IMG/VR virus record: IMGVR_UViG_3300031417_000380
Length of the DNA stretch: 64,000 nucleotides
Origin: a virus
Direction: 5' to 3' (one strand)
Part shown: positions 5,889 to 47,800 of the stretch, in pieces
Layout of the letters: each line of letters begins with the position of its first letter
Numbering within the stretch: the first letter of the stretch is position 1
Program-made: the position numbers and the translations under genes
The notes under the pieces: model-generated
The model's database searches: none
What the model was told of the DNA's origin: nothing
What the model saw: only the letters and a program-made list of their open reading frames with translations

Positions 5889-6455
5889 TTAATCACCTCG
5901 AGCCGTGCGGAGAGCGATCTGACGCTGAGGGGTCGGCAAGCGAAGCTCTCGAATCGCAGCCTGAAACTCAGTCAGGTAGCTGTCAAGCGTCGGCTGACCG
6001 GTGTTGAACTCGAACTCATCCCCAAGCCAGGTGGCGTGCAGCCCGAGCTCAATGGTCGCCATCGCACTTAGCAACACTCCGGTTCGCATCGGCTTGTTTC
6101 GAAGCGGCCGCGTTAGATCCTGAACCCACTCTGGGGACCATTCTTCAGTATCCCGAGTCGGGAGAAAAAGCTCATAGATGTCGGAAGAAGGCGCTGGGCA
6201 ACCGATCCGCCGCATGAACACCGGGAACCCGACGACTAGCACCGAAGCTATGTCGTGTGCCAGCTGATCCGCGTTGCCTCGAATCCTACCGTAGATCTGA
6301 AAGACTTCATCAAACTGAGCTCTCTCGTTCACACGGCTCTCACGATCCCAGAACGCTGTGTAGTAGTAATAGATCGATCGACCGTAGTAGACCTCTAAGA
6401 GCGAGTAACCTCTACCAGCCCAATCAGACTCTAAGAAGTCGAGATACGGTGTCAT
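5889..6455 (-). CDS. Family B paralog (shorter member)
   Basis: LGLHATWLGDEFEFNTGQPTLDSYLTEFQAAIRE; ATGA overlap with upstream gene. Confidence 0.82.
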   Translation of the reverse strand: MTPYLDFLESDWAGRGYSLLEVYYGRSIYYYYTAFWDRESRVNERAQFDEVFQIYGRIRGNADQLAHDIASVLVVGFPVFMRRIGCPAPSSDIYELFLPTRDTEEWSPEWVQDLTRPLRNKPMRTGVLLSAMATIELGLHATWLGDEFEFNTGQPTLDSYLTEFQAAIRELRLPTPQRQIALRTARGD

Positions 6456-7279
6456 AGCCTTTCCCCGTAAGCAGCTTTGAAGTACAGCTCAAGCACTCTG
6501 TCATCCATCACCTCTGTAAAAGGACGATCATACTCCATAAGTGCTGGATAAGGAGTACTGACTGGGAATCGATCGGTCGAGCCTTGGTGCCGTCGTTTGA
6601 GCTCCATCGTGACCCGAATCCTCCGAAGTCGCTCCTGAGCCTGAGGCTTTGGCAAGCTAAACTCGAGCATCATGGCGGAAAGCTCAGCGAACAGCTCATC
6701 CATACGGGGTACACCGGTACTGACCGGAAGAGGCTCGTAGTGCCAGGCTGCCTCAAGAGCATATGAGAGCGATGCTACGAAAATGTAGAACTCTGAATCG
6801 ATGAGATCGGCTTCCGAGCTAAGCTGAAGTCGCTCCAGACCGATGTTGACTTCGGTGCTAAGATGCTTCATCGTAGAAAGAGGCATTACAGCTAGCTTGA
6901 GTATGGGAGCGTGCAGAGTAAATATATCCTCATCAACAGGGCTCCTTCTAAGGCGCTGTAGCTGTTTCTTAGACCGACGAACCAGGATATCTGCAACGCA
7001 CTCGCAGAACTCATCTACCGTACGCTCACTTCCGCTGGCCACGAAACCTTCGGCTAAAGCTTCTGCCTGTAGTAACCCCTCAGCATCCAGCGAAAGAGCG
7101 GCTTGTTTAAGCTCCGGAGTCCATAGGCTTCGCATAAACTGACGCTCGTCCTGAAAGCCGTAGACAGCCGAGTCGGCTTTGACTGCTTGCCAGCCTCTCT
7201 TGCACGTCTTGCCAGCTAGCTTAACTGAAAGCTCAGTCTCGGACACGGTTGCTCTTCTTGTAGACATCTTCAAGTTCAT
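6452..7279 (-). CDS. Family B paralog (start may be GTG 7246)
   Basis: SLWTPELK ... ALEAAWHYEPLPVSTGVPRMDELF. Confidence 0.82.
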   Translation of the reverse strand: MNLKMSTRRATVSETELSVKLAGKTCKRGWQAVKADSAVYGFQDERQFMRSLWTPELKQAALSLDAEGLLQAEALAEGFVASGSERTVDEFCECVADILVRRSKKQLQRLRRSPVDEDIFTLHAPILKLAVMPLSTMKHLSTEVNIGLERLQLSSEADLIDSEFYIFVASLSYALEAAWHYEPLPVSTGVPRMDELFAELSAMMLEFSLPKPQAQERLRRIRVTMELKRRHQGSTDRFPVSTPYPALMEYDRPFTEVMDDRVLELYFKAAYGERL

Positions 7280-8009
7280 CGGGGTCGATCATGTACCCAG
7301 CGTTCTCCGGCAGAAGCAATGTCTCTACGTTCCGGTCGACCCCGATTGAGACGGTGTTGGGCCGATCGTATTTCCAGCTGAACTCTTGAACTAGTCGCCG
7401 TCTGCGCATGAGCTCTAGTGTCGCCGGTCGACCGATACGGCCCTCCCGGATAGCGTCCTGAGTCTCTTTAAGAAGCCGGTCAAGAGTCGGCAGTCCAGTG
7501 ACAAGCTCCGGCTCATCGTGCCACCAGGCGGCGACGAGCGCCAAATGCATCGCTGCAACCCAGGCTATTACGGCTGGCTTTCCTCGAGTCCATTCGTTCT
7601 CGATCTGTACGTTCAAGCCTAACTTTTCAGCACCGCGGCTGGCCATCGATGACAGAATTGCCCTCGGTATGCCTCGATCCTCCACCTCTGGAAGAAGAAG
7701 ATCGTACATCACAGTCTTGTTCAACCTCCCGCCGGTGTAGAAGATGTCCTCCGCTAGATAGTAAACCGAGGATAGGTAGATAGCCTCGGAGAAAATAGAC
7801 TCAGTGAGCTCAGGTTTGAGAGTCTGCACACAGCGTAAAAGTTCCGGTAGCTGTGGATACCCAGCTTTGTCTCGAAGCGTATCCGGAGAGCGTAGCTCCT
7901 TCATCCACAGGCTTTCGGGGAGCGACTCATCAGGCCAGTGAATGATCGGCGGCTTGCCAAAAGTGTAGCCGTAAACGTTGTCTAGCCAGGAATGCTCACT
8001 CTTAGACAC
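7233..8009 (-). CDS. Family B paralog
   Basis: SLWMKELR ... ALVAAWWHDEPELVTGLPTLDRLLKETQDAIRE. Confidence 0.82.
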   Translation of the reverse strand: MSKSEHSWLDNVYGYTFGKPPIIHWPDESLPESLWMKELRSPDTLRDKAGYPQLPELLRCVQTLKPELTESIFSEAIYLSSVYYLAEDIFYTGGRLNKTVMYDLLLPEVEDRGIPRAILSSMASRGAEKLGLNVQIENEWTRGKPAVIAWVAAMHLALVAAWWHDEPELVTGLPTLDRLLKETQDAIREGRIGRPATLELMRRRRLVQEFSWKYDRPNTVSIGVDRNVETLLLPENAGYMIDPDELEDVYKKSNRVRD

Positions 8010-8424
8010 TCGTGGTGATCCGATTTCTTCTCTTGCGCTCTGTCTTACGATCGGCTTCTAGCTGAGCAGCGTAGGCTTGAGACCGGGCCATAATTGCATC
8101 ATACGTCATGGTAGGCTCATCCGCTTTGAGCGACCAGTACCAGGAAAGACCGCTCAGATGAAGAGCTAGCTTCAAGAACGCAGCATCAGGCATAGTGGGC
8201 AGCTTTTCCTCAAAGAGTAGTGCAATCTTAAAGTTTTCCCCAGGATTGAGGTGAGTTCGTCGAGTGAGCATATGAATCTGGTACGACGGCTGAGGCTCAG
8301 GAGCGTGAACAAGCTTTGTCTGCTTCCAGTCAATAGCTAACAATAGAGGATAGTCCAAGGTCGACCCCCCATCGAACACGAGTAGCCGGCCTTCTTTCTT
8401 TGCCTGTTCTAGCTTCTCGTTCAC
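8002..8424 (-). CDS. Family C paralog (start corrected from 8457)
   Basis: AKKEGRL ... IHMLTRRTHLNPGE; GTGA overlap. Confidence 0.82.
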   Translation of the reverse strand: MNEKLEQAKKEGRLLVFDGGSTLDYPLLLAIDWKQTKLVHAPEPQPSYQIHMLTRRTHLNPGENFKIALLFEEKLPTMPDAAFLKLALHLSGLSWYWSLKADEPTMTYDAIMARSQAYAAQLEADRKTERKRRNRITTSV

Positions 8425-8789
8425 GCCTTTGCCTCCTGCTTCTTCTTTTTGAGCCACTCGTGGAAGTCAGCATCGCTGGCCTCCCCGTTAAGGGCAAGAC
8501 CCCACCAAACACCGGTACCTGTTTCGCCGACGCTGAAACAAAGGTAAGCAGCCGGCTCGTATTCTGCCAAAGGAGCTTCAGTGATTACGTAGAGCTTGCC
8601 AAACTCCTCAGGATTAAGAGTGCTTCTGCGGGTGATGAAATGTAGCTCGAAACCTTTGAGCTTGTGACTAGTCACAAGCTTTGTGGCGTTTCGATTTACA
8701 CTCAAAGTGATCGGCATGGTCAAATCGTTCTGGAACTCAAGTTTAGCTAGACGCCCCTCTTCCTTCGCCTTAAGTAGTCGCTCGTTCAT
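8421..8789 (-). CDS. Family C paralog
   Basis: AKEEGRL ... LHFITRRSTLNPEE. Confidence 0.85.
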   Translation of the reverse strand: MNERLLKAKEEGRLAKLEFQNDLTMPITLSVNRNATKLVTSHKLKGFELHFITRRSTLNPEEFGKLYVITEAPLAEYEPAAYLCFSVGETGTGVWWGLALNGEASDADFHEWLKKKKQEAKA

Positions 8790-9676
8790 CAGTTCTCCTC
8801 TGTCCCGTTCTCTAGCGCCGAATCATTATTAGCTTCTTGTTCAACTACGCTATTACTTGTTTGCTCTTCGAGCTTCGCATTAAGTTCATCGGAGCTTAAC
8901 CCTTTAAGTGAAAGATTCCAGTCAGTGTCACGCTGCTCTTTATGTAGAGGAATTCGGATACTACTCGTTGCGGGCAGATCAGCAACAGACTGCTGTAGAA
9001 CCACCTTTGCCACAAAATGCTCTCCTGGGTTCAGCATAGTGCGACGTGTTACCATGTGGAGCTCAAAATCATCCTGACCCTCGAGCACGTTCTCAAGCCT
9101 CACTCGAGAGTGGTCGAAGCTTAGATTGAGCGGTAGCTTTGTAACGTTGCTTCCTCGTACTGTAGCTACTCGACCTTCGCGCTCAGCTTGACGCAAGCGC
9201 TTCTGCTGTTCAGTAAGAACTGCAGCTACCCGCTTTCTTTTCTTGCTTTCGGAAGTAAACACCGGAGTGGGATACTTTCGTCCACCACGTTCCTCAATCG
9301 CCTTTTCGAGGCCACCCGGCGGCGGGAGCGTGCCATCTACGAAAAACGCCCAGGAGGTCCCGTCCTGCAAAACAAATTGGAAATACGCAGTGGGAGAATA
9401 GCTCGTGCGAGGAGCAGGCAATATAACATGGAAGGCGAAAGTGGTTTGGTAGCTTACGAGAGCCTGATTCGCAACCATTACTAGCTTGTAGCTAGAAAGC
9501 TCGTCAGGCGCTTCGAAGATACCGGTGCTGGACATATCCGCTTCAAGCAAAAAAGTTGCAGATTTGTCGTTGAAACAGCTGCAAAGCATAAGACGATCTT
9601 CGTTACGAGCCTGAAGAAGCTCCTTGCTGGCGCCAACCGGAACCCACACTGGCTTTTGCTTAGACATTTTACTCAT
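8789..9676 (-). CDS. Family C paralog with two tandem domains (first degenerate)
   Basis: ARNEDRL...LVMVANQALVSYQT, then AEREGRV...LHMVTRRTMLNPGE. Confidence 0.85.
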   Translation of the reverse strand: MSKMSKQKPVWVPVGASKELLQARNEDRLMLCSCFNDKSATFLLEADMSSTGIFEAPDELSSYKLVMVANQALVSYQTTFAFHVILPAPRTSYSPTAYFQFVLQDGTSWAFFVDGTLPPPGGLEKAIEERGGRKYPTPVFTSESKKRKRVAAVLTEQQKRLRQAEREGRVATVRGSNVTKLPLNLSFDHSRVRLENVLEGQDDFELHMVTRRTMLNPGEHFVAKVVLQQSVADLPATSSIRIPLHKEQRDTDWNLSLKGLSSDELNAKLEEQTSNSVVEQEANNDSALENGTEEN

Positions 9677-10005
9677 CGGTTCTCTTTCGTGTCAGGAAGA
9701 AGCTCAAACGCTGACGCCCACATTGTGCTGGTGCCGTCAAACGCCACTTGGAGCTTCACGTCAGCCGGATACTGATCGAGGGGCTTCTGGAGCAACACTC
9801 GAAGTATCATCGTCTCGCGAGGGTTGAGCGTCGTTCTGCGAGTTGCAGCATGTACCTCGCAGCCGTAGCGATCAACTTTTGGGACGTTGATAAGCCTCGG
9901 CATAGCCCGCGAGAAAATAGGGCTCCACGGCACTGAGCGACCGTTAGTGGCATATACTAGTGCTGTGCGCCCTTCTAGTTGAGCTTTCTTTAGTTCAGCA
10001 TCCAT
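9673..10005 (-). CDS. Family C paralog
   Basis: AQLEGRT ... VHAATRRTTLNPRE. Confidence 0.85.
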   Translation of the reverse strand: MDAELKKAQLEGRTALVYATNGRSVPWSPIFSRAMPRLINVPKVDRYGCEVHAATRRTTLNPRETMILRVLLQKPLDQYPADVKLQVAFDGTSTMWASAFELLPDTKENR

Positions 10006-10006
10006 C

Positions 10007-10585
10007 TCAGTTGCCCTTTCCTTTCCGTCGCTTGCCCTTCTTAGTAACAGCCCTTTCGTCTTCTTCGCGTTCTTTCAGCCGGCGTCTAAGCTCAGCTTTT
10101 GACAGGCCATGAAGTGAAAGCTGCCAGTAAGTTCTTGAGGGGAGAGTCAGATTCACGTATGCAAGTTCATCAACCTCACTGACCTTACATTCGAGCTCAA
10201 GCTTTACGATGAAAGACTCATCCGGATTGAGATTCGTTCGACGTGTCACCATGTAGAGTCGAAAGCTCTCCTTGCCTTTAGGCATACCGTAAAGCTTTGT
10301 CTCTTCAGAGTTGAAGTCTATTACGACCGGCTTTCCAGACCCGTTAAACCCGCTAAGCTTTACCACTCTTCCTTCGAACTCAGCCTTACGAAGTCGCTCA
10401 CCAGGTTTGGGCTTTGCCGTGACAATCGGCTCAGTCTTTTTCGCCTCAAGCTCCGGAGTCACCTCCTCCGTAGCGATAAGCGCCTTACGAGAAGCCGACT
10501 CTCGCAGCATCTTGGCAGGTTTGGGCAGTCCAGACCGAAGCGCTCTCTGGTTTGCCGGCCGAATAGATTTTCGATTAGCGATCAC
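10007..10585 (-). CDS. Family C paralog with basic N- and C-terminal extensions
   Basis: AEFEGRV ... LYMVTRRTNLNPDE. Confidence 0.85.
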   Translation of the reverse strand: MIANRKSIRPANQRALRSGLPKPAKMLRESASRKALIATEEVTPELEAKKTEPIVTAKPKPGERLRKAEFEGRVVKLSGFNGSGKPVVIDFNSEETKLYGMPKGKESFRLYMVTRRTNLNPDESFIVKLELECKVSEVDELAYVNLTLPSRTYWQLSLHGLSKAELRRRLKEREEDERAVTKKGKRRKGKGN

Positions 10586-11370
10586 TGCTGCGCTCCCGTT
10601 CTGTAGCTCATGAAGATATCTGATACCTGGTCAGGAGTTAGTCGCCGTCCCAGACTAGCAAAGTAGCGTCGTGAAAGCTCAGCAGCCAACGGTTCATACT
10701 CCACAGCTGCGTCGAGAGACACCTTCATGAGCGTCTTCCTCAAGTACTCCTCAGCGTCGTAGCTGAGTAAGTCTCTTACGTCTTCAAGGAGCTCGGCGCG
10801 GCTCAAAATCTCGTCAACGAATCTCTGTGACGGAGCGTAGTACTCCATAGCATCTCCGAGAGATGTGAGAGCGTCGTCGAAAGCCGGGATGCCGGTCTCA
10901 GGCGTCGCTGGGAGCCGATACCAGCGACGGAGAAGTAAGAGCTCTAGCGAGTAAGCAGCCTGGTAGAAGTCCGCGCGAACATCATGTTCCTGCGGCTGTA
11001 CTGGAAGCTTCCTAGCGCCGGCTACTAACGCATCGAGGAGCATTGACTCCACCGACTGTACACCAGAGAACTGCGTCGGTGGAGTGAGGATGAGGAACAT
11101 GTCGAGGTCAGGCACAACACCGGTGAGTTGGCGAATCTGATCGTAAACACGGCGCGTCAGAATCTCAGTAAAGATGTCAACGAAGACCTCTAAAGTGCCA
11201 CCGGCGGCTTTGTAGCGCTTTAGGTACATCGGTAGCTGTAGTTCCCCGGCGGCGTCGCGTTCATAGCCCCGGCGGCGAAGTTCCGGAGTCCAGAGGCTCG
11301 AAAGAGTCCTGATCCCATCAGTGCTCTGTGCACGGATAAGATCATTGTAGTTCGGCGTGAATTGACTCAA
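10582..11370 (-). CDS. Family B paralog, first gene of the B/C operon
   Basis: SLWTPELR ... LLLRRWYRLPATPETGIPAFDDAL; GGAG RBS, TTG start. Confidence 0.82.
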   Translation of the reverse strand: MSQFTPNYNDLIRAQSTDGIRTLSSLWTPELRRRGYERDAAGELQLPMYLKRYKAAGGTLEVFVDIFTEILTRRVYDQIRQLTGVVPDLDMFLILTPPTQFSGVQSVESMLLDALVAGARKLPVQPQEHDVRADFYQAAYSLELLLLRRWYRLPATPETGIPAFDDALTSLGDAMEYYAPSQRFVDEILSRAELLEDVRDLLSYDAEEYLRKTLMKVSLDAAVEYEPLAAELSRRYFASLGRRLTPDQVSDIFMSYRTGAQQ

Positions 11371-11503
11371 ACCTACTCCGTTCGCTATTCAACGTAACCG
11401 TATCACGAACTTGTACTGGCTTCAATTGGTAAGCGTCATTTCGTACTCGGTAGGATACGGCTTACAGTTATTGCAATCATTTAAGCTTAGCGAAAGAGAA
11501 GCC

Positions 11504-12007
11504 ATGGCCGTCGCAGAGAAGACAGTTACGTCGCTCGTCCCAAAGGACGCAGTCCGCCCGCGTGAGCTTAGCGAAGTTGTCAACAAGCTCTCTTGGAAGA
11601 TGAGCTTCGAGCGTCACACACGCACAGAGGACGACTCAATCAGGGACTTCTTCAACGAGCACGGTATCGAGGCAGATGAAGCTCTCACCAAGAAGATCAT
11701 TGCAGAGGTTCATCGTCTTACAGTGGCAGACCAAGTCTACGATAGCGAACAGCGTCAGGCCTATCGTGCACTCTTTCCGACACTTAAAGAACTCCTTCCC
11801 ACTACCGCGACAGAAGGCTACCCCACTTACCTGACCATCAACGCCGTCGGCTGGATCCGTGGCGAAACAGTCCGGATCAACGGGGAGCGCTTTGAACTTA
11901 CCGGTGATGAGTGCGAACGCTGTGGCGTGAACCCAAAGGCCCACGGAATCGGCGGTGGAGTACGCTGCGTAAACACTAGAGAGTGTGGTTGGTGGTATTG
12001 TGCATAA
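11504..12007 (+). CDS. Hypothetical protein with C-terminal Cys-rich zinc-finger-like region (start corrected from 11411)
   Basis: CERC...H...RCVNTRECGWWYC; GAAAGAG RBS. Confidence 0.75.
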   Translation: MAVAEKTVTSLVPKDAVRPRELSEVVNKLSWKMSFERHTRTEDDSIRDFFNEHGIEADEALTKKIIAEVHRLTVADQVYDSEQRQAYRALFPTLKELLPTTATEGYPTYLTINAVGWIRGETVRINGERFELTGDECERCGVNPKAHGIGGGVRCVNTRECGWWYCA

Positions 12008-12061
12008 AGTATGCAACCTACTACATGTAGTGTTTCACTATAACGTAGGGTAAATCTCTCT

Positions 12062-12099
12062 GATTTTCGCATTGCGGTCTAGCTAGGATCGTGTACTAT
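12062..12099 (+). promoter_or_regulatory. Cassette-type promoter, leaderless
   Basis: GATTTTCGCA-TTGCGG-16 bp-TACTAT, 7 nt before ATG 12107. Confidence 0.7.
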
Positions 12100-12106
12100 G
12101 GGATTC

Positions 12107-12403
12107 ATGGAAACCAACAACACCTGGGGCTTTGAAGCTCCCGTCGCACCCGTCGTCCGGGATTACGATGTGAGCGACTTCCTCACCAACGCCCCGGTCG
12201 GCACCGTTGTCGAGGTCGATGGTGACCTCTACAAGAGGGCTGCGCACGACGAGTGGCTCGAGCTCGAGAACACAGTGGTGGGTGTCACCGGATATGACGG
12301 ACCTTACGCAGAGCACGAGACCACTTACGGCTCGACTCTCGCCCGTTACGTTGAAAGCGCCAACTGCGAGGTTCGCGTCCTGCGCCTCGGCGAGAACTTC
12401 TAA
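12107..12403 (+). CDS. Small acidic hypothetical protein
   Basis: Leaderless ATG, GC3-rich codons, followed by cassette hairpin. Confidence 0.8.
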   Translation: METNNTWGFEAPVAPVVRDYDVSDFLTNAPVGTVVEVDGDLYKRAAHDEWLELENTVVGVTGYDGPYAEHETTYGSTLARYVESANCEVRVLRLGENF

Positions 12404-12410
12404 CTCAACT

Positions 12411-12456
12411 CTTCTAGCGCTGCATCGTAACGGTGTGGCGCTAGAAGTGCAAGAAC
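12411..12456 (+). terminator. Cassette hairpin with purine-rich tail
   Basis: CTTCTAGCGCTGCATCG/CGGTGTGGCGCTAGAAG with three G-U pairs, tail TGCAAGAAC. Confidence 0.65.
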
Positions 12457-12497
12457 TTGAGCTAACACACGAAAGATCGCCCCTCGTTACCAAAGAA

Positions 12498-12534
12498 CTT
12501 TTGTTTTGCGAGATACGGTGTGGCCATGTATCGT
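12498..12534 (+). promoter_or_regulatory. Cassette-type sigmaA promoter
   Basis: CTTTTGTT-TTGCGA-17 bp-TATCGT. Confidence 0.65.
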
Positions 12535-12571
12535 TAGGTCTACCAACGCTTCACCAATCTAAGGATACATC

Positions 12572-12922
12572 ATGCTTATCTCGTACGAAGACCGTAACTC
12601 GCTCGTCAAGGAGTTCGAGGCGCGCTTCGACGCGATCAAGGCCCCGGTTAGCGAGGACTTCTCTAGCAAGGCGGCGCACGAGAAGGCTTACACCGATTTC
12701 TTTGGGAAGCGTGACGCGCTCAAGGAAGAGTTCGATGACATGCTCATCGAGAAGGGTTTCGCCGGCCTGATCGACCTGCCGGGCTTTGACGAGATCTCGG
12801 AGCGTACGCTCGAGCTCGCTAAGGAGAGCGAGTACGGCGCGCACTTCGAGGGCCTCGCTGCTGAGTTCTTCGCCGTTGCTGAGCTCGTTCGCCTCGGATA
12901 CGCCGCCGGCAAGGGAAACTGA
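12572..12922 (+). CDS. Small acidic helical hypothetical protein
   Basis: AAGGA RBS, GC3-rich codons. Confidence 0.82.
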   Translation: MLISYEDRNSLVKEFEARFDAIKAPVSEDFSSKAAHEKAYTDFFGKRDALKEEFDDMLIEKGFAGLIDLPGFDEISERTLELAKESEYGAHFEGLAAEFFAVAELVRLGYAAGKGN

Positions 12923-13707: not shown

Positions 13708-14052
13708 CTACTCCTCAGTAAGCACACAGTTCGTCTTGATAAGCCCGCCGGGACCGTCCCACGAGCCGATGTTCAGTGCGTAGTAGGTGCCGCGCGGCAG
13801 CTGATCAATCGGCGTTCGGAGCTCAATGTGGAACGTGAACGTCTCACGGGGGTTAGCGATTGAGCGGCGCGTCACCATGTGAAGCTCCGCATACGACTCG
13901 TCCTCTGTAAGCTCACGAGCTCCTTCACGAGTCCGCATCCCGCTTGAGAACATCACCTGTAGGACGATCGGTACTCGAAAGTTGTTCGTAAGGGTAAAGG
14001 TGGCTAGACGACCCTCTAGGTCAGCTCTCTTGTACTTTGGGTTGAGCGCCAT
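13708..14052 (-). CDS. Family C paralog
   Basis: ADLEGRL ... LHMVTRRSIANPRE. Confidence 0.85.
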   Translation of the reverse strand: MALNPKYKRADLEGRLATFTLTNNFRVPIVLQVMFSSGMRTREGARELTEDESYAELHMVTRRSIANPRETFTFHIELRTPIDQLPRGTYYALNIGSWDGPGGLIKTNCVLTEE

Positions 14053-14056: not shown

Positions 14057-14212
14057 CTATCCTCTCATCGGCGGTGGCATGATCCTGTGGTCAGCAGGAC
14101 GCACCGGTGGCTGCCACTGAACGCGAGCCACCTGCATACCGGTCTTCGCCGACTCCTCTATAGTCTTCTCGTCGTTGAACTTCCAGTAGCCTTCGGACGG
14201 TGAGGAAGTCAC
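14057..14212 (-). CDS. Small 51-aa ORF not in the ORF track
   Basis: GTGA overlap with upstream stop; MTSSPSEGYWKFNDEKTIEESAKTGMQVARVQWQPPVRPADHRIMPPPMRG fills the operon gap. Confidence 0.5.
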   Translation of the reverse strand: MTSSPSEGYWKFNDEKTIEESAKTGMQVARVQWQPPVRPADHRIMPPPMRG

Positions 14213-14682: not shown

Positions 14683-14704
14683 ACTAAATCCTTTATTTGA
14701 GATT

Positions 14705-15406: not shown

Positions 15407-15416
15407 AATAGCCCTC

Positions 15417-36472: not shown

Positions 36473-36488
36473 GGGCTCATCCTACCGA

Positions 36489-38010: not shown

Positions 38011-38036
38011 CACATCATCGTAACACGAACAGGGCT

Positions 38037-39123: not shown

Positions 39124-39483
39124 TTAACGCTTGAAGCCGTGAAGCGGAACAATAACTACAGAGTAGGAGTTAGGACCGTAACCTGAGTCACCAAACTGAA
39201 GCTGTAACCCCGATGATACAGGATAGCTCGTGGCCGGTCGTGCGAACTCAGCTTTAAACTTCACCAGCTCATCCGGATTAGCGATTGAGCGGCGAGTCAC
39301 CATAGATAGCCGGTAACCGTTGATCGGCGTCGGATCCGCAAGGATGCCACGAGCGTTACGCTCGGAGCCAGAGTGTGCAGTTAAAGTCAGACCGAACGGT
39401 CCGCTCCCGACGTTCTTCAACGTGATGTGAAGCAGGTTTGGATTCTCAGCATCAATCTCAGCTTTGACTAACTGCAAGCTCAT
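39124..39483 (-). CDS. Family C paralog (start corrected from 39522)
   Basis: ITLKNVGSGP ... LSMVTRRSIANPDE; GAGGG RBS. Confidence 0.82.
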   Translation of the reverse strand: MSLQLVKAEIDAENPNLLHITLKNVGSGPFGLTLTAHSGSERNARGILADPTPINGYRLSMVTRRSIANPDELVKFKAEFARPATSYPVSSGLQLQFGDSGYGPNSYSVVIVPLHGFKR

Positions 39484-39733
39484 GGTGCCCTCTTTCTCTC
39501 GACTCAATACGCGACGAGACATCCTACCGAGCGACCGACCCTCCGGCGTAACTCAGCAGCAAAGCATCGATACAGCAAGAGGCAAGACTGCTCCCCTACC
39601 GCGAACAGATACCACGGTGGGGGAGCGAGGCACTAAATCGTGCTAGAAATCAGTAGTCTTCCTCATTGCTCGTTCGTTTAATCCTCGTCAACCTGTCTTG
39701 CGTAGAGCAGCGGCACCGTGTACCATAAAGCCT

Positions 39734-39883
39734 ATGGCTAACGACATCGAATCCACAGCACCGGCAGACTGCCCATTCTGCGAAGGTACTGGGCAATACT
39801 CTGAGATTGTCCGGGACGGCTTTATTCCGAAGGTGATCTCACGCGATTGCCCCAGAACCGGCCACGCGATCAAGAATAACTGA
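39734..39883 (+). CDS. Tiny protein with CxxCxGxG zinc motif
   Basis: TTGCGT-17 bp-TACCAT, 7 nt before ATG; CPFCEGTG...CPRTGH. Confidence 0.65.
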   Translation: MANDIESTAPADCPFCEGTGQYSEIVRDGFIPKVISRDCPRTGHAIKNN

Positions 39884-39925
39884 GCATCGAGTCTGCGCAT
39901 CGATTATCTGAACGTGATACGTCGG

Positions 39926-39961: not shown

Positions 39962-39968
39962 AGGAGCC

Positions 39969-40259
39969 ATGGATAACGACACCAAGCTCACCCAGGCCGA
40001 GGCCACACTCGAGAGCATCGATCTGGTCTACCGCCAGGGAGAGTATCTCACTGACAACGACATGGAGTACTACCGCGAGCAGGTTCAGACCACGCTTACC
40101 GACCTCGCCGACGCTCAACCCGTTGGACAGCTCAAGGAAGATCTCATCGGTCGCAACGCTGTGATTGAAGAGCACTTCGCTTCCGGTGTCGCTCCCCGCG
40201 GAGTTCTCGTAGCGGTTATCATCGCCGCCGGTGGGCCTATCCGACAGGCCTCCGCCTAA
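39969..40259 (+). CDS. Small helical protein, paralog of 38700..38993
   Basis: TQAEATLESIDLVYRQG ... RGVLVAVIIAAGGPIR. Confidence 0.82.
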   Translation: MDNDTKLTQAEATLESIDLVYRQGEYLTDNDMEYYREQVQTTLTDLADAQPVGQLKEDLIGRNAVIEEHFASGVAPRGVLVAVIIAAGGPIRQASA

Positions 40260-40267
40260 GCGCATCG

Positions 40268-40317
40268 ACTTCTAGCCCGCCGATCGAATCGTTGATCGGC
40301 AGGCTAGAAGTTTGAGC
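40268..40317 (+). terminator. Cassette hairpin with purine-rich tail
   Basis: ACTTCTAGCCCGCCGATC/GATCGGCAGGCTAGAAGT, tail TTGAGC. Confidence 0.6.
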
Positions 40318-40331
40318 ATCGACCGAATAGC

Positions 40332-40436
40332 AACGGGTCGCTACAGGCCTGAGCAGCTGTCTTACAGCACGACTTGCTTTTCACGACACGTTATGCAGGC
40401 AACCGATCGAGAGGCTTAGATCGTCGTAGAGCGAAA
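40332..40436. repeat. Dispersed ~105-bp intergenic element (copy)
   Basis: Aligns with 45589-45693: GGTCGCTAC...CACGACACGTYATG..GGCAA...CTTAGA...CGTAGAGCGAAA. Confidence 0.6.
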
Positions 40437-40455: not shown

Positions 40456-40929
40456 TTACCGGCTGTTGGCTGAAAGCGCTCCAAGAAGCTCCTGCAACAA
40501 CTCTTCCTCAACAGTGCCAAAGACCGCAACAAACGCATCCCGAACGGCTGTGACGGTGACCGACTTCTCGAGTACGAGCTTCTTGGCGGACGGTGACGAG
40601 CCCGATGCAAGCAGCTTCCGGAAACTCGCCATATCCTCAGCCACCTCGGCCTCGGTGTAGACGCCGGCGAGGATCGTCCGCGCCGCGGTGTGCAGCGAAG
40701 CTAGCTCCACCGTCAACGGAGGCTTCTCCGGAGCCTGCGCCTCGGCCAGCTCACCGAGCACCGTAAGGATAGCACGAAGCTCATCCATAGCGTCTTCGCT
40801 GTGGCGACGCCAGTTATCGTTAGCAAGCGAGAGAGCTCGAGCCACGTTGTCCTGCACGTCTCGAGAGCGAGCCTCCTCGCGGAACTCTTGCTCAAGGTCG
40901 TCATCATCAAAGTCAGCGTCAAAGGTCAT
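40456..40929 (-). CDS. Helical hypothetical protein with acidic N-terminus
   Basis: TAGAAT 5 nt before ATG; GC3 bias. Confidence 0.75.
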   Translation of the reverse strand: MTFDADFDDDDLEQEFREEARSRDVQDNVARALSLANDNWRRHSEDAMDELRAILTVLGELAEAQAPEKPPLTVELASLHTAARTILAGVYTEAEVAEDMASFRKLLASGSSPSAKKLVLEKSVTVTAVRDAFVAVFGTVEEELLQELLGALSANSR

Positions 40930-40937: not shown

Positions 40938-41720
40938 CTACCGATCATCGTTGCTCGTGAACAGGATGCTCATAGCTCCCCCGGTGAGCACTGGAGCCAT
41001 GAGCGACTCCACAGCAAGCGAATCCAGAAGCTTCTCAGCTTTAGCTCGCCGGTCAGGGCTCTGCGAAACGTACGGCTTGTGCTCAGCCAGCGGCTCAAGC
41101 GGGTGCTCTGTAGCCATAAGACGCTCGGCGATGGTGACGTACCGCTCAAGGTTATCTTGGCTCCCGTCGAAGAAGAACTCATCCCGAGCGTCGAGTAACG
41201 GAGCGTAGAAAGCCTGGTTAAGCCTCTTGTAGTGAGCAGCAACCTCGAACCGATCGTCACCCTGAACCCAGTACTCGCTACCGAAGGAAGCCGCGTGAAG
41301 CTGAAGGCTGAGGTGTGTCGGCGTCAAAGCCGCAGCAGCTGAGTCGAGTCTGTTAAGCTGGATAGCGTAGGCTTCGGCTGGGAACGCCGTACAACCGATC
41401 TCCGCGGTAAGCCCCTTATTCTCAGCGAACTCCTGCACCGCCGCCAGCGTCGGGAGCAAACTCTGAAGCGAGCTAAACATGGCCTCCCGGTCCTTGAGAA
41501 TGTTCGCTGTAGCGTGCTCAGTGCTCACCGCCACGTAAACGTCACGAGCACGATTACGTAGCATGCAGAAAGCCTCCAACGTCTTAGGAGCCTCTTCCTC
41601 AAGCTTACTCAATAGCTTCCCCAGCTTCCCCGAAGCCGAGTACTGTTTCGCACGAAGATCAAGCTCATTACAGAGATAGCGAATATCTTCCACCAGGCCC
41701 GGCATCTTAGCTCTCGTCAT
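40938..41720 (-). CDS. Family A paralog
   Basis: TPTHLSLQLHA ... FYAPLLDARDEFFFDGSQDNLERYV. Confidence 0.87.
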   Translation of the reverse strand: MTRAKMPGLVEDIRYLCNELDLRAKQYSASGKLGKLLSKLEEEAPKTLEAFCMLRNRARDVYVAVSTEHATANILKDREAMFSSLQSLLPTLAAVQEFAENKGLTAEIGCTAFPAEAYAIQLNRLDSAAAALTPTHLSLQLHAASFGSEYWVQGDDRFEVAAHYKRLNQAFYAPLLDARDEFFFDGSQDNLERYVTIAERLMATEHPLEPLAEHKPYVSQSPDRRAKAEKLLDSLAVESLMAPVLTGGAMSILFTSNDDR

Positions 41721-42456
41721 GGCCCGCCTCCGTAAGACTGAGCATGAGCTCATCGCTCACAAGCTGGTCCTCTAGCTTCGTGATCGCCTCGAGCTGCTCA
41801 GGAGTTCGGTAAGCTCGTTCGTACGGGACGCCGTCCACCGACGGAGGTGGAGTGTTCTCGAAACGCTCGGCGACGGCAAGATACTTCCTCAATGACTCCG
41901 CCGTCGAGTCCTCGAAGAACACATCACGCGCCGCCGCCAGCGGGTAATAGAAAGCTCTCTCCGAATCCTCGGTAGCGAGAACCTCACGAGTCAGAACGGC
42001 CGGTGTCTCGAGCTCGTAAGCCTCGTGAAGCTTGAGATAGGAGGCCTGCACTCGGCGATGGACCGGCGTCATGCTGCGTACGTCTCGTCGGATCCGATCT
42101 AGGACCTCACGCTCATCCTCAGTTGAGAAAACCAGATCATCGAACTCCTCAAGAATCCCACGTTCATCAAGCTCCTGAAAGAGGATCGCAGTCGTGGTCA
42201 GGAGCTCGCTGATCGAATCCATGACCTCATCGCTCTTGAGGAGTGACTTCACCGGATCGTAGTAGTCGATCTGAGCTCTAATCCGATTCGAGCGGTTGAG
42301 AAGCTCCGTAACATCCACGAAGTGCTCAGGGTAGGTCTCGCAGAGAGCATCGTACAGTTCACGATACCACTGTCGAAGAGTGGAGAAGACCGGTTCTAGA
42401 GTGCTCTGCATACTAAGGAGCGTCCGGAGCTGCGGAGGGTAGCTCTCGAAAATCAT
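41707..42456 (-). CDS. Family A paralog
   Basis: TPVHRRVQASY ... FYYPLAAARDVFFEDST ... LVSDELM. Confidence 0.88.
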   Translation of the reverse strand: MIFESYPPQLRTLLSMQSTLEPVFSTLRQWYRELYDALCETYPEHFVDVTELLNRSNRIRAQIDYYDPVKSLLKSDEVMDSISELLTTTAILFQELDERGILEEFDDLVFSTEDEREVLDRIRRDVRSMTPVHRRVQASYLKLHEAYELETPAVLTREVLATEDSERAFYYPLAAARDVFFEDSTAESLRKYLAVAERFENTPPPSVDGVPYERAYRTPEQLEAITKLEDQLVSDELMLSLTEAGHDES

Positions 42457-43202
42457 CGCGCACCCTCCAGAAGCCCGAGCATGAGCTCGTCTTTAATCAG
42501 CTCATCCTCGAGCTCCGCAGAGGCTGCCAGTTGCTCAGGAGTTCGCTGGATGCGCACGTAAGCGATTCCACGTATCGACGGCGGAAGCAGCTGAGAGAGC
42601 CGTTCGGACGTAGCGAGATACTCAGCGAGTACGGCGGCTGATGGAGCCTCGAAGAACATGTCTCGGGCATCGGTCAGTGGAGTATAAAACTTCGCCTCTG
42701 TCGCCTCAGTTAGGCGAACATCCGGGGCAGTGAACAACGGGATCGAAGTACGACAGTCAGTAATACGATCAGCGTAGTGTAGCTGTACACGCCGATGGAT
42801 AGGGGTTAGTCTACTCACTGTCTCACGCACTCGCGCAAGCTTCTGACGCTCATCTTCCACAGAGAACACCATATTATCGAGCTCGCCAAGAAGCCCCATT
42901 TTTCCTAGCTCCTTGAACGCTGTCTCCATAGCTGAAAGAAGACCGTTGAAAGATTGCACCGTAGCCTCACCGTTGCTGATCAAGAACACCGTTGGATCGT
43001 CTTGATCCATTATCTTAGCGTGAACGCTACCGTTTACGACGGTAACGCTCTGTTGAACGTTCTCGAAATGCTCCGGATAAGACTCGCAGAGCATCGTGTA
43101 GAGCTGCGGATGCCACCGCTCAATCGTAGAGGTAACCGCGGCTATCTTATTCTGTAACTCAAGCATAATCCGGGTAGCCGGCGGATAGGTTGTGTCAGTC
43201 AT
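42453..43202 (-). CDS. Family A paralog
   Basis: TPIHRRVQLHY ... FYTPLTDARDMFFEAPS ... LIKDELM. Confidence 0.88.
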   Translation of the reverse strand: MTDTTYPPATRIMLELQNKIAAVTSTIERWHPQLYTMLCESYPEHFENVQQSVTVVNGSVHAKIMDQDDPTVFLISNGEATVQSFNGLLSAMETAFKELGKMGLLGELDNMVFSVEDERQKLARVRETVSRLTPIHRRVQLHYADRITDCRTSIPLFTAPDVRLTEATEAKFYTPLTDARDMFFEAPSAAVLAEYLATSERLSQLLPPSIRGIAYVRIQRTPEQLAASAELEDELIKDELMLGLLEGAR

Positions 43203-43930
43203 CTCTCAGCCTCCAAGAGCTCAAACATGAGCTCGTCGCGCACAAGCTCGGCCTCCACAGCTTCAGCACGTCGTGCCGCTTCGTCAAAGCGCTCTGCAGT
43301 TACGTCGACGTTCATTAAGAGAGGATGCTCCTTGCCAGCAAGCTCTTCAGCCGTCGCCAAATAATCACGGAGCTTCGCAACAGACGTATCTGCGAAGAAC
43401 GCATCCCGCGCCTTAGCCAGCGGAGAGTAGAACAAGCGATTTACAGTGTCGCAGATTTCTACGGTAGGCGTTAAAGCTCGCGGTCCGTAGCCATAGACCT
43501 GACTCAGGCTCGTCAGATGCAGCTGCACACGGCGATGAACCGGCGTCAGTTGAGCCACCCGTGAACGGATACTCTTGAGCTTGACCAACTCCTCAGAGAT
43601 CGGATAAGCCAAGTCACTGAGCTCCTCCGTCAAGTCTTCACGAGCGAAGAGCGGCTCCATCGCCAGCAACATGGCCTTCGTAGAGGCTATCTGTTCCTCT
43701 CCATGCTCGATAAGCGAGCGAGCAGCATCATCAAAGTACAGCCAATGCTCGGCTAACTTATGTGCTGCTTGGCTTTGCGAAAGCTTTACCAGTTGCTCAT
43801 CAAACAATTTATCCGGCGTAGCATCAAGTACCTCGCACCGCTTAACAAACCGTCTTGCCTGAAGATTGGCCTGACCGCTCACCGCAATGAACTCTCTCAG
43901 AAGAGTTGGGTACTGAAGCTCCTTAATCAC
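43199..43930 (-). CDS. Family A paralog (start corrected from 44014)
   Basis: TPVHRRVQLHL ... FYSPLAKARDAFFADTS ... LVRDELMFELL; GGAGG RBS. Confidence 0.88.
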   Translation of the reverse strand: MIKELQYPTLLREFIAVSGQANLQARRFVKRCEVLDATPDKLFDEQLVKLSQSQAAHKLAEHWLYFDDAARSLIEHGEEQIASTKAMLLAMEPLFAREDLTEELSDLAYPISEELVKLKSIRSRVAQLTPVHRRVQLHLTSLSQVYGYGPRALTPTVEICDTVNRLFYSPLAKARDAFFADTSVAKLRDYLATAEELAGKEHPLLMNVDVTAERFDEAARRAEAVEAELVRDELMFELLEAER

Positions 43931-44657
43931 GATCGGCCTCCAGAAGCTCAAACATGAGCTCATCGCGCACGAGATCAGCGTAGATCTCAGCCGCCTGCTC
44001 AACGACTTGCTCACTCCGCTTCACGTGGACACCGTCGAGGTCTCTAGCCAAGGGATGCTCAAGCTCAAGCAAATTATCCGTCGCCGAGAGGTAGCGGTTG
44101 AGCGTTTCTAGCGTAGGCTGCTCAAAGAACGCATCCCGCGCCTCCGTCAACGGACGGTAGAACGACCAGGTAACAGTGGTCCAGTAGCCGTTGTTCTCGT
44201 GCGACCGCTCTCCAAAGACGTACTCACCGACAAGCAGGGAGAGATGGCGCTGCATTCTTACGTGGACATAGGTCATCATGCTCACCCGAGAGCTAATGAA
44301 CGCAAGCTTCTTCAACTCGACCTCTGTCGAGAACCGCAGGCTCGCCAGCTCAGGGTGCAAATCAGCCTGAGCGAAGATCGGCTCCATCGCGCACAGGAGA
44401 TCTTCAAGCACAGCGATCATCTCATCGAAGTTCTCCATGAGCGACCGAGCAGCGTCATCCTGAGCAACCCACGACCCGTTTGTGTTCATCTCGCCGCGCA
44501 CATGGATATACCGTCGCAGCTGCTTATCGAACTCAACCGGGACCGCGAACCCGAACTGGTTGTGACGCCGCAGCATCCGAGTAGCGCTCGACTGCACCGT
44601 CGCTTGCACCTCGAGTAGCTCCCTCAACGGCGCCGGATAGTGAAGGTCATCGGTCAC
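43923..44657 (-). CDS. Family A paralog
   Basis: TYVHVRMQRHL ... FYRPLTEARDAFFEQPT ... LVRDELMFELL. Confidence 0.88.
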   Translation of the reverse strand: MTDDLHYPAPLRELLEVQATVQSSATRMLRRHNQFGFAVPVEFDKQLRRYIHVRGEMNTNGSWVAQDDAARSLMENFDEMIAVLEDLLCAMEPIFAQADLHPELASLRFSTEVELKKLAFISSRVSMMTYVHVRMQRHLSLLVGEYVFGERSHENNGYWTTVTWSFYRPLTEARDAFFEQPTLETLNRYLSATDNLLELEHPLARDLDGVHVKRSEQVVEQAAEIYADLVRDELMFELLEADRD

Positions 44658-44753
44658 CGTTCAAACCTACACCGTTGAACCGTTGCTCGCAACCGATTTC
44701 ACCTGCCGCGCTCTAACCGGCGAGCTACGGGATCAGTAACCGATTCTCTCGAA

Positions 44754-45518
44754 TCAGCGCTTACTGTCTAGAAGCTCAAACACGAGTTCGTCACACACAA
44801 GCTCCGCATAAAGCTCAGTCGCTTGTCCAGCAGCCCAGGCGTCTCGCTTCACGTAGACACCATCGAGTTCTTTAGCTAGCGGATGCTCAAGCCCCAAAAG
44901 AGCATCCGCCGTCGCGAGGTAGAGATTGAGCATCGGTCGCGTCGGCTCTTCGAAGAACGCATCCCGCGCCTTCGCCAGAGGCCTGTAGAACGAGCGGTTC
45001 AGGTCTTTCCACTGTTCACTCTTCTCATGACTGTTCAAAACCACCACGTACTCGCTAAAGCTCAAGACGAGATGACGCTGCATCCGCACGTGTATCGAAG
45101 TCATGGCGCTCGCCTGAGAACGAATCGCTTCGAGCTTCACCAACTCTGTATCTGTCTGGAAGCTCTGTCCAGCAAGGACCACATCGAGCTCCGGCTGAGC
45201 AAAGATCGGCTCCATAGAGCGCAACAGCCTCTCCAACGTGGAGATCATCTCGTCGCTATCCATAAGCTCTTCGACGGCGTTACCCAGCGGATACCGTTGC
45301 CCACCCCACTTCGCGTTATGCTCACCTCGAACAGCGATAAAACGTTGAGACTGCTCATCGAAGTCAGAAAAACGTCGAGACTGCTCATCGAACTCAGAAG
45401 TGATCGTAAGTCTAAGCTCATTCATGCGGCGGCGCGTACGAGAGCTTTTCGTCTGTGCTATCGCCTGTACCTCGCCCAGCCGATTCATATCCGGCGGGTA
45501 GAGAAAGTCATCCTTCAC
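44754..45518 (-). CDS. Family A paralog with internal 10-aa duplication
   Basis: TSIHVRMQRHL ... FYRPLAKARDAFFEEPT ... LVCDELVFELL. Confidence 0.88.
   Translation of the reverse strand: MKDDFLYPPDMNRLGEVQAIAQTKSSRTRRRMNELRLTITSEFDEQSRRFSDFDEQSQRFIAVRGEHNAKWGGQRYPLGNAVEELMDSDEMISTLERLLRSMEPIFAQPELDVVLAGQSFQTDTELVKLEAIRSQASAMTSIHVRMQRHLVLSFSEYVVVLNSHEKSEQWKDLNRSFYRPLAKARDAFFEEPTRPMLNLYLATADALLGLEHPLAKELDGVYVKRDAWAAGQATELYAELVCDELVFELLDSKR
45339..45398. repeat. 30-bp tandem duplication inside a family A gene
   Basis: AAAACGTYGAGACTGCTCATCGAASTCAGA x2, 28/30 identical. Confidence 0.85.
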
Positions 45519-45588
45519 TGTTCGATCTTACACCGTCGAGCAAAGACTCGCAACCGGTGATCGATCATCCATCAGGCCTTCGTAAAAA

Positions 45589-45693
45589 ACGTGGTCGCTA
45601 CGGCCGCAGGCGACAGACTCACAGTTGCTCACCGCTCACACGACACGTCATGTGGGCAAGGCGAATAGAGACTTAGACAGCCGTAGAGCGAAA
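45589..45693. repeat. Dispersed ~105-bp intergenic element (copy)
   Basis: Aligns with 40332-40436. Confidence 0.6.
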
Positions 45694-45719
45694 ATGTCTA
45701 CACCGGTTTGAGAGTGGTC

Positions 45720-46463
45720 TCAATCGGCCAACAACGCCGCCATGAGCGAAGCCACCGCAAGCTGATCGAACGCTGCCGCCGCTCGATCAGTCTGAGAAGG
45801 ACTCCAGCGAGGCCCCGGCTCAAGTCTCAAGAACTGTGCAAGAGGATTCTCAGGAGCGTTCAATCGATGAGCGATGGCCACGTACTGCTCAAGATACTCC
45901 GACGACGGCTCTAGGAAGAAACGATCACGGTACTCAAACAGAGGCGCGTAAAACTCCTCAATCGGTCGATTGGCCGCCAGCTTCTCGGCCGGAGAAGAGC
46001 CCACCGCGGTGAAACGGTACTCATGATAGACCGACCAGACATGCGTCTGCATAGCAGTGTGAGCAACCGTCCAACCGGCCACCGCCTGCTCGACAGATGT
46101 GAGCCGGTTCTCGTAGCCTTCGAACGGATTGCTTCCCCAACGCTGCTCAGTGCTCAGACTCTTCCGCTTCGTAAACGTCTCCACAAGCCTGAGCATCTCG
46201 ACGAAGCTTCGCAGATCGAAGAGAAGCTTCGGCCGAGCAATCAAGTTCTCAACAGCGGCGTCCCGAACAAGAGCCTGGCGACAAAGATTCATCGCCTCGA
46301 TGAGCCTTCCGTACTCAGCGCGGGTCATAGTACCTGAGTCCAGGAACGACTGAAAGATCGCCGGTCTCTCCCAGAGGGCCTCATCGTGAGCCTCGAGAGC
46401 ATCACACAGTTCAAGCAGATCGCGCACCTGCGGCGCCATCACCGACGGATAGGTCATCGTCAA
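45720..46463 (-). CDS. Family A paralog
   Basis: TVAHTAMQTHV ... FYAPLFEYRDRFFLEPSSEYLEQYV. Confidence 0.88.
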   Translation of the reverse strand: MTMTYPSVMAPQVRDLLELCDALEAHDEALWERPAIFQSFLDSGTMTRAEYGRLIEAMNLCRQALVRDAAVENLIARPKLLFDLRSFVEMLRLVETFTKRKSLSTEQRWGSNPFEGYENRLTSVEQAVAGWTVAHTAMQTHVWSVYHEYRFTAVGSSPAEKLAANRPIEEFYAPLFEYRDRFFLEPSSEYLEQYVAIAHRLNAPENPLAQFLRLEPGPRWSPSQTDRAAAAFDQLAVASLMAALLAD

Positions 46464-47191
46464 ACCTCCAACAGGCGAAGCGAAAGCTCATCGGTGATCA
46501 GCTCAATGAGCAAACCGTCCGCACGCTCGACAGACTTCTCATACCGCCGAGCAGGAGGGGCGTCAAGATCATCGTAATCGGCCATCGGATGCGGTCGCTC
46601 AGCCAGCTTGCCCGCCGCCTCGATGTAAAGCTCTAGAGCCGCCCCCGTCGGCGTCTCGAAGAACCGATCACGAGCTTCCGCCAGCGGCTCGTAGAAAGCA
46701 TCCAGCTCACGCCGATGCTTGAGCATGAGCGCCGGCGAGCCGAACACGTACTCAGCCGTCGCCGCCGTCAGGTGCAACTGCACTCGCCGATGTACCTGCG
46801 ACACGGTACTCAAGTCAATGGCCAGTGACTCAAGATGATCGCCCAGACCGTCCGTAGCGAACATGGTCTGAGAGGCGTATTGTCTCGGCTCTAACCGGCG
46901 AATGCGCTCTTGAGCTACACCCATGGCCTCCAAAAGATAGGTAAGCCTAGCCAAGGCCTCCGGCCCCTGTTCAATGAATGAGCCGACCACATCCCTATTC
47001 AGGATACGACGAGGAAGACTATCCAGCTCTAGCCGGTGTGCATCGAACAACGCGAACTTGTCCGGAAGCTCACGCTGCAGCTCACCGTAAAGCCCTGAGC
47101 GAAGGCTCATGAAACGCTCCGCCGGGATGACCAACGCTCTGCTCACCGCAAGCAAGGTTTCCACAGGGAGAGGATACAAGGCGGTGATCAC
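46460..47191 (-). CDS. Family A paralog (origin-proximal)
   Basis: SQVHRRVQLHL ... FYEPLAEARDRFFETPTGAALELYI ... LITDELS; TAGGAT 6 nt before GTG. Confidence 0.88.
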   Translation of the reverse strand: MITALYPLPVETLLAVSRALVIPAERFMSLRSGLYGELQRELPDKFALFDAHRLELDSLPRRILNRDVVGSFIEQGPEALARLTYLLEAMGVAQERIRRLEPRQYASQTMFATDGLGDHLESLAIDLSTVSQVHRRVQLHLTAATAEYVFGSPALMLKHRRELDAFYEPLAEARDRFFETPTGAALELYIEAAGKLAERPHPMADYDDLDAPPARRYEKSVERADGLLIELITDELSLRLLEV

Positions 47192-47369
47192 CGAGCGATC
47201 CTACACCATCAGGCCGCTCGCCACAACGAGCTCAACCGACCGGTTAACTCACACTCTCTCCGTCGCTCCCAGACGCTCACTCTAACAGAACCATCATCAT
47301 ACGACCGACGAAAAAGAAACTACTCTCGACGGCGACCGGTCACAAGGCGTCCTCACCAAGGATACCGAT

Positions 47370-47408
47370 CCCGCAACGGCTTGCGGCTACCTTCGCTGCG
47401 CTCGAGGC
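47370..47408. repeat. 39-bp direct repeat, copy 1 of 3
   Basis: CCCGCAACGGCTTGCGGCTACCTTCGCTGCGCTCGAGGC. Confidence 0.9.
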
Positions 47409-47473
47409 CAGAGACGACTCAACCGTCGGCGACCGGTTAGACCACGACTCAAGCCCTCAGATGAGTAGCCGAC

Positions 47474-47800
47474 TCACTCGTCCGGCACCAACGGCGAAGT
47501 CATATACGAAGTTGATCCGAAGAGACCGTTACTGAGTCCTACGTAAAGAGCAACATCAGACGGATACTCAGAGATCGGCTTCGACAATAGCACTCTCACC
47601 ACCAAGCTCTCATGAGGGTTAAACCGAGTACGCCGAGTAGCCAGGTAAAGCTCAAAGCTTAGCTTGTCTTCCTTCGGTACGTTCACAAGCTTGCTAGTGC
47701 CCAGGATAAACCGAGGGCTCCAAGGCTCTCGATACTCGTTCGTGAAGCGCACAAGAGCTGTACGCCCCTCGGCTTTTGCTTCCTTCAGCCTAGCGTCCAT
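47474..47800 (-). CDS. Family C paralog flanked by 39-bp repeats (start corrected from 47854)
   Basis: MDARLKEAKAEGRT ... LYLATRRTRFNPHE; GAGGAG RBS; closest to 9673..10005. Confidence 0.85.
   Translation of the reverse strand: MDARLKEAKAEGRTALVRFTNEYREPWSPRFILGTSKLVNVPKEDKLSFELYLATRRTRFNPHESLVVRVLLSKPISEYPSDVALYVGLSNGLFGSTSYMTSPLVPDE

Follow-up and report, generated by a model that had tools for sequence, protein, structure and literature searches.

In Staphylococcus, esaG/DUF600 genes form arrays in which immunity paralogs stand in tandem next to EsaD, and genomic accordions of tandem paralogs have been described in giant viruses, huge phages and large plasmids. Leading-region genes of conjugative elements are oriented to be transcribed from the T-strand (Samuel et al. 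2024, PMC11541004). Here we analysed a locus that shares features with each of these: a 64-kb window (the whole stretch of DNA considered) of the uncultured plasmid-like element IMGVR_UViG_3300031417_000380, in which a 42-kb minus-strand arm (5889-47854) is occupied largely by paralogs of three gene families, A, B and C. The sole other locus compared was L001, 15.9 kb of a 26.7-kb Joint Genome Institute (JGI) contig and a close syntenic relative. Our favoured reading, on which our judgement is evenly poised, is that the three families expanded independently, that B and C form a module, and that A is a repertoire of binders acting in the interaction between element and host.

Like the genomic accordions, the arm holds tens of old tandem orphan paralogs that turn over by birth and death between close relatives, and it changes faster than the core. 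It differs from them in its conjugative-plasmid-like context, with Gram-positive type IV secretion system (T4SS) genes, and in that A, B and C have no homologs in the sequenced phages or plasmids searched. The likeness to EsaG/DUF600 arrays lies in the many tandem copies of diverged small cytoplasmic proteins; however, no toxin was found beside A among the window neighbours examined, and A is unrelated in sequence and fold and has its own promoter for each sub-array. With leading-region islands (PMC11541004) the arm shares a uniform block of small accessory genes beside an origin-like site and opposite the transfer genes, but it is far larger (42 kb, three families).

Clustering of minus-strand open reading frames (ORFs) by BLAST gave groups of 28, 8 and 4, and hidden Markov models (HMMs) built from these groups were run against every window ORF of at least 50 codons. 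The HMM search added four divergent A genes (14705-15697, 16592-17368, 29640-30299 and 30347-30979) and resolved 8789-9676 as two C domains in one gene. The pair 19114-20181 and 20290-20988 was assigned to A when profiles were compared (hhalign probability 88%, E = 2.8e-6), aligning to the C-terminal 175 columns of the A profile, including its R-x2-YF-x2-PT stretch. In all, the arm contains 46 family genes, 34 A, eight C (nine domains) and four B, every one on the minus strand; these are the counts given by a first-pass annotation made from the sequence alone. That annotation also described the arm as co-oriented genes of only three families, which holds for the 46 but not for the arm as a whole, where four singletons and several plus-strand genes are also present. 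The G+C content of the window is about 54%. The family genes and the region from which they diverge are as follows (coordinates, strand, feature, evidence).

5889-11370, minus strand: B/C operon (HMM matches, overlapping or abutting junctions, alignments)
10582-11370, minus strand: operon gene, B
10007-10585, minus strand: operon gene, C
9673-10005, minus strand: operon gene, C
8789-9676, minus strand: operon gene, C with two domains
8421-8789, minus strand: operon gene, C
8002-8457, minus strand: operon gene, C
7233-8009, minus strand: operon gene, B
6452-7279, minus strand: operon gene, B
5889-6455, minus strand: operon gene, B
13708-14052, minus strand: lone C at the distal end of the A array (C HMM E = 4e-35; ortholog P0006)
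14705-30979, minus strand: distal A sub-array, 18 very diverged copies including 19114-20181 and 20290-20988 (HMM, hhalign, tree)
31849-38013, minus strand: middle A sub-array, 8 copies (HMM E = 1e-50 to 1e-68; five copies with 1:1 orthologs in L001)
39124-39522, minus strand: lone C inside the A array (HMM; 72% ortholog in L001; separate clade)
40938-47191, minus strand: origin-proximal A sub-array, 8 copies, the most alike among A (HMM E = 1e-61 to 1e-74; tree)
47474-47854, minus strand: lone C, first gene left of the divergence point (HMM; orthologs P0004, P0005 and P0007)
47907-50362, no strand: divergent intergenic region with the GC-skew switch; candidate replication origin, possibly oriT (origin of transfer) too (composition, blastn, repeats)

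B and C had been described as interleaved in one tightly coupled operon, and its junctions confirm this. Transcribed from 11370 to 5889, the order is B,C,C,C,C,C,B,B,B, with successive junctions of -4, +1, -4, -1, -37, -8, -47 and -4 nucleotides (nt). Since these junctions overlap or abut, B and C would be co-transcribed and translationally coupled. Parts of the operon recur in close relatives (P0002, P0015, P0016 and P0027), and on the strength of this coupling and recurrence B and C probably work as a module. P0027, a relative's ortholog of 10007-10585, is 335 amino acids (aa) long and has two C domains compared with one here, indicating that C domains are gained or lost within genes. The C proteins of the operon bear extensions that are charged and probably disordered: 10007, 8421 and 8002 end in tails rich in Lys/Arg and 8789 in an acidic one, and 10007 is extended at its N-terminus too, by a basic stretch. 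No such charged tails are found on the lone C genes.

When shared regulation was assessed across A, B and C, B and C were found to be co-transcribed, whereas A was not, having about 20 unit heads of its own and opposite-strand genes lying between. Downstream genes within the separately promoted A units overlap by 1-4 nt, and with so many promoter heads the A array is not one operon. Unit heads carry an extended -10 element (TGnTAnnnT), frequently with a TTGCGA-like -35. At many A heads (14705-47191) 6-8 nt lie between the end of the -10 and the start codon, and a Shine-Dalgarno sequence is lacking, a spacing that points to leaderless mRNAs. Leaderless mRNAs are common in Actinobacteria, and the probable leaderless state of many A mRNAs fits an actinobacterial host. 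A PafBC-type promoter was sought at the unit heads and not seen, the promoters being of the ordinary extended -10 kind. Scans with consensus promoters and terminators gave counts no higher than in shuffled sequence.

The AlphaFold2 model of the A protein 43923-44657, built on a 32-paralog alignment, has a predicted local distance difference test score (pLDDT) of 91.9 and a predicted template modelling score (pTM) of 0.87, and consists of two helical bundles, residues 1-129 and 130-244. Foldseek returned no match to it at E <= 0.001 in PDB or BFVD; against a PDB representative set, VIA-align found generic four-helix bundles with a best Z of 9.1, which is inside the range that VIA-align describes as common among helical proteins. 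An origin of the two bundles by internal duplication was considered and rejected, as no duplication was detectable. The conserved polar residues of A (H132, Q136, H138, R174, D175 and Y189) all lie in the C-terminal bundle, and the N-terminal bundle has none. Mean pairwise identity among A paralogs is 15% in the N-terminal bundle versus 21% in the C-terminal bundle, and the N-terminal bundle was the more diverged in 10 of 12 ortholog comparisons.

Comparison with L001 revealed how the A array changes. L001 is colinear with positions 33-50 kb of the window and holds A and C, in the order origin-like region, C, six to seven A, the 157-aa singleton, small plus-strand genes, C and at least seven A. 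At the DNA level (blastn), identity in the origin-side region is 87%, and the C orthologs are 66% and 72% identical as proteins; A orthologs are mostly 28-58% identical, and A copy number differs. A joint tree resolved several 1:1 A ortholog pairs as well as losses, together with lineage-specific A duplications (44754/43923 and 42453/41707 in the window, and two in L001). End branches of the origin-distal A copies exceed 2 substitutions per site. Even the closest A pair of the origin-proximal sub-array, 44754 and 43923, is only 52% identical, and there are no recent duplicates at the DNA level, the best paralog pair reaching 77% over 149 nt. These duplications and losses, the long branches and the absence of recent DNA-level pairs are the marks of long-running birth-and-death evolution with fast sequence change, as read from this pair of loci. 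The A gene 44754-45518 also contains a 30-nt tandem duplication (45339-45398), which yields an in-frame 10-residue repeat (FDEQS.RF twice), a recent small change within an otherwise old family.

The three families are unrelated to each other. Their profiles do not align (hhalign probability <0.1%), and A and B are helical proteins, with C remotely immunoglobulin (Ig)-like, in support of the first-pass description of three unrelated folds. The B model is all-helical, at moderate confidence (pLDDT 76.5), and gave no convincing fold match, only a generic C-terminal four-helix match (Z 7.1). For C, which has the core motif MVTRR[ST]xxNPxE, 40 relatives were retrieved when 1.84 billion representative proteins were searched exhaustively (HMMER) with the family profile. 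Most are 100-140 aa long with an almost invariant MVTRRSxxNPxE core; five C homologs lie on one 828-kb contig and others on 698-kb and 41-kb contigs. The remaining relatives are large proteins in which the C profile matches 3-10 tandem repeats called Big_2, fn3_6 or I-set by Pfam, with weak domain E-values of 5e-6 to 1e-2. In P0041 and P0042 the C matches fall about 20 residues inside the Big_2 matches, in register.

Because the C profile meets Big_2-type repeats in a consistent register, C is best seen as a remotely Big_2-like Ig domain that stands alone and is cytoplasmic. The likeness is to the tandem Big_2 (PF02368), fn3_6 or I-set repeats of large surface-type proteins. C differs from Big_2 in falling below Pfam thresholds, in being single-domain (one is two-domain), cytoplasmic and often basic-tailed, and in the MVTRR[ST]xxNPxE motif, which is specific to the C family. 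Among three C proteins and ten stand-alone homologs, none reached a Pfam gathering score or matched any family at E <= 0.01. Orthologs place the start of the lone C 39124-39522 probably at 39483 (119 aa), and that of 47474-47854 probably at the ATG at 47800 (108 aa), as P0004, P0005 and P0007 begin MDARLK. In the C tree, 47474 is sister to the operon copy 9673 (support 100/99), and 39124 clusters with homologs from other giant contigs.

Beyond close relatives, the families were seldom met in the searches made. Representatives of A, B and C had no match in Pfam, NCBIfam, PADLOC or PHROGs (in PADLOC, 0 families for 10 representatives at E <= 0.01), the three profiles gave noise only against PDB sequences, and ESM Atlas held no usable match for B or A. 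A word-indexed search of 5.8 billion proteins gave 12 matches for C and seven each for B and A, almost all being orthologs of single window genes on a 727-kb sister contig and on fragments of related elements. Some orthologs, among them P0020 and P0021, come from closer relatives and are 88-97% identical. Nothing was found in PLSDB (72,556 plasmids; one representative per family), nothing for A or C in INPHARED (50,697 phage genomes), nothing real for B and C when IMG/VR was scanned by single protein and by motif, and nothing real for A and C in scans of the same kind of 185,579 GTDB species genomes. One GTDB hit, L002, was rejected as a wrong-frame chance match. Neither a signal peptide nor a hydrophobic segment of membrane length is present in any member of the families; the proteins of A and B are acidic, and several of those of C are basic.

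The plus-strand GC skew, negative to the left of about 49.7 kb, is positive to the right of it, and the genes diverge at this switch; all 46 family genes, on the minus strand to its left, are transcribed away from the candidate origin, as had been claimed. Repeats of 39-40 nt occur at 47369, 47867 and 48223. The interval 47907-50362 is accordingly presented here as a candidate replication origin, possibly also oriT. The right flank encodes a TcpF/VirB4-like ATPase and TcpE, as well as PilT/TraJ-like ATPase, LigA, CpaE/ParA-like and, weakly, CpaB-like genes, and begins with the following gene.

50363-53086, plus strand: 907-aa protein with a weak MobC/Replic_Relax signal

This signal (NF041423, residues 610-700) has E = 4.9e-5 and 22.7 bits against a cutoff of 200, and the protein had no Pfam match at E <= 0.001 and no PLSDB match. 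Given the T4SS-type genes on this flank, the element is classed as conjugative-plasmid-like; it is at least 740 kb long, and its host is uncultured and probably actinobacterial.

Under our favoured reading, the 42 kb would be the origin-proximal accessory arm of this giant conjugative-plasmid-like element, and would carry three unrelated orphan families of soluble cytoplasmic proteins, each expanded by old tandem duplication with birth-and-death turnover. The A array, with its roughly 20 promoters and many leaderless mRNAs, would most simply be an independent expansion. Its proteins may be modular binders, in which the constant C-terminal domain does a common job or docks a common partner and the diversifying N-terminal domain recognises varied targets; such binders could serve element-host conflict or establishment. 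The uniform orientation of the arm may reflect co-direction with forks from an origin near 49.7 kb, not membership of a single system, as orientation away from the skew switch is what transcription co-directional with replication predicts.

Several points weigh against this reading. A, B and C are all functionally orphan families, and the binder model for A is suggested by a pattern of conservation. The conserved C-terminal domain of A would also suit a shared partner, which could be C or B. Although surrounded by A genes that turn over, the lone C genes stay in place in L001, a constancy that could mean that the array depends on them in some way. Gene strand switches at the same place as the skew, so that the skew is not independent proof of an origin. 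Finally, the word searches with A and B scored 8,000 candidates each, so that distant relatives may be missed.

The arm might instead be a conjugative leading region, in which A, B and C would be produced soon after the recipient is entered and would serve establishment or anti-defence. Its position fits, lying across the divergence point both from the T4SS-type genes (TcpF/VirB4-like, TcpE and PilT/TraJ-like ATPase) and from the protein with the weak MobC/Replic_Relax signal, and so do its uniform strand, its small, fast-evolving genes and their turnover in copy number. The orientation would seem not to: the genes point away from the divergence point, whereas strand polarity suggests that transcription from the T-strand should run toward oriT. 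Compared with leading-region islands, the promoters here are of double-stranded DNA type, the heads carrying an ordinary -35 and extended -10 and not hairpin single-stranded DNA promoters, although no dedicated Frpo search was made. Nor is any anti-defence, SSB or methyltransferase gene of such islands known here: the members tested have no SSB, ArdA, PsiB or methyltransferase Pfam domain, and no anti-defence, SSB, PsiB or methyltransferase family of Pfam or NCBIfam was found in the A, B and C representatives or the tested singletons. The relaxase call is weak, at the 22.7 bits given above, and any oriT or nic site here would be putative. We regard this explanation as unlikely.

The first-pass annotation had proposed that A, B and C form one multi-component, combinatorial machine, with many variable A proteins (sensors) sharing C, a small beta adaptor here read as Ig-like, and having B as their partner. 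The part that stands is the link between B and C in one coupled operon; A is linked to them by adjacency alone. In favour of the machine, lone C genes flank the A array on either side and one more lies within it, in positions kept in L001; A pairs a conserved, dock-capable C-terminal domain with a variable N-terminal one; and all three families are seemingly restricted to one narrow clade of elements. Against it, the operon and the A array are kept apart by about three genes on the opposite strand, the A genes carry their own promoters, and C occurs in several copies on other giant contigs. The bracketing of the array by lone C genes at 13708 and 47474, with a third at 39124, is correct as to position, but these genes come from different C clades, and the A subclades track position and are not partitioned by them. 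A single machine of this kind is in our estimate distinctly improbable, and the same slight credence goes to the new combinatorial system of giant actinobacterial mobile elements that it would imply, in which dozens of A proteins, diversifying in their N-terminal bundles, would dock C through the conserved C-terminal ones, with or without B, to give a germline-encoded recognition repertoire in element-host conflict.

A might also be an array of orphan immunity genes against polymorphic toxins, each paralog neutralising another toxin variant, which would accord with a small, soluble, acidic and helical protein that is present in many diverged copies in tandem and has one faster-evolving domain. 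Yet no toxin-type gene (LXG, WXG100, Rhs or nuclease domain) was found among the window neighbours examined, A has no match to a known immunity family, and conserved His, Gln, His, Arg, Asp and Tyr residues in the C-terminal domain would be unusual for pure immunity, so that we consider this very unlikely. Least probable of all is a huge phage in which C would be an Ig-like virion decoration or accessory protein, and A and B other virion or early proteins, since, although Ig-like domains are common on phage structural proteins, A, B and C have no PHROGs match, A and C are absent from the 50,697 phage genomes, B and C from IMG/VR and the A model from BFVD, and the window has no structural genes and conjugation-type genes on its flank.

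The remaining features of the arm lie between or beside the family genes.

11411-12922, plus strand: opposite-strand block of about three ORFs, 11411-12007, 12098-12403 and 12572-12922 (ORF list, translations)
14209-14760, minus strand: co-oriented singleton
20988-21443, minus strand: co-oriented, lipoprotein-like singleton that interrupts the distal A sub-array
31256-31552, minus strand: co-oriented singleton
38072-38428, plus strand: small gene against the array direction, 118 aa (comparison with L001)
~39740-39885, plus strand: small ORF of about 47 aa with a CxxC motif (DNA alignment with L001)
39969-40259, plus strand: small ORF of 96 aa with a hydrophobic C-terminus, followed by a terminator hairpin (DNA alignment, blastp, blastn)
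40456-40929, minus strand: co-oriented acidic singleton of 157 aa, 8 nt downstream of the last proximal A gene (63% in L001)

Within the opposite-strand block, GC by codon position, measured for 11411-12007 and 12572-12922, is clearly coding-like in 12572-12922. The 198-aa product of 11411-12007 has a C-terminal Cys-rich stretch (CERC...C...C...C) and no Pfam match. The singleton 20988-21443 is the only secreted-type gene in the array, with a signal like that of lipoproteins (LLLTGCSD) and a YGGSD...CDW motif that is repeated internally; that at 40456-40929 had no family match. The plus-strand frame 38072-38428 is conserved with L001 at 72% of amino acids versus 58% for the overlapping minus-strand ORF, and is probably a real opposite-strand gene within the array. 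The ORF at about 39740-39885, of some 47 aa with a CxxC...C pattern, is about 80% conserved in L001. About 390 nt at 39965-40360 are nearly 100% identical to L001, compared with about 70% in the flanks, and synonymous sites are invariant too, which suggests recent exchange or RNA-level constraint. Rfam and tRNA scans of the window found nothing.

The giant extrachromosomal elements found in uncultured bacteria are still poorly understood, and orphan multigene families such as these take up much of what they encode. A combines a confidently predicted fold, for which the searches of solved and of predicted viral structures gave no relative, and a pattern of constant and variable domains that makes it a target for structural and interaction work. 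Should A turn out to be a repertoire diversified for recognition, whether C and B take part or not, it would represent a new solution to host-element conflict; if it is not, the arm would still be a well-defined case of accordion-like family growth beside a replication origin.

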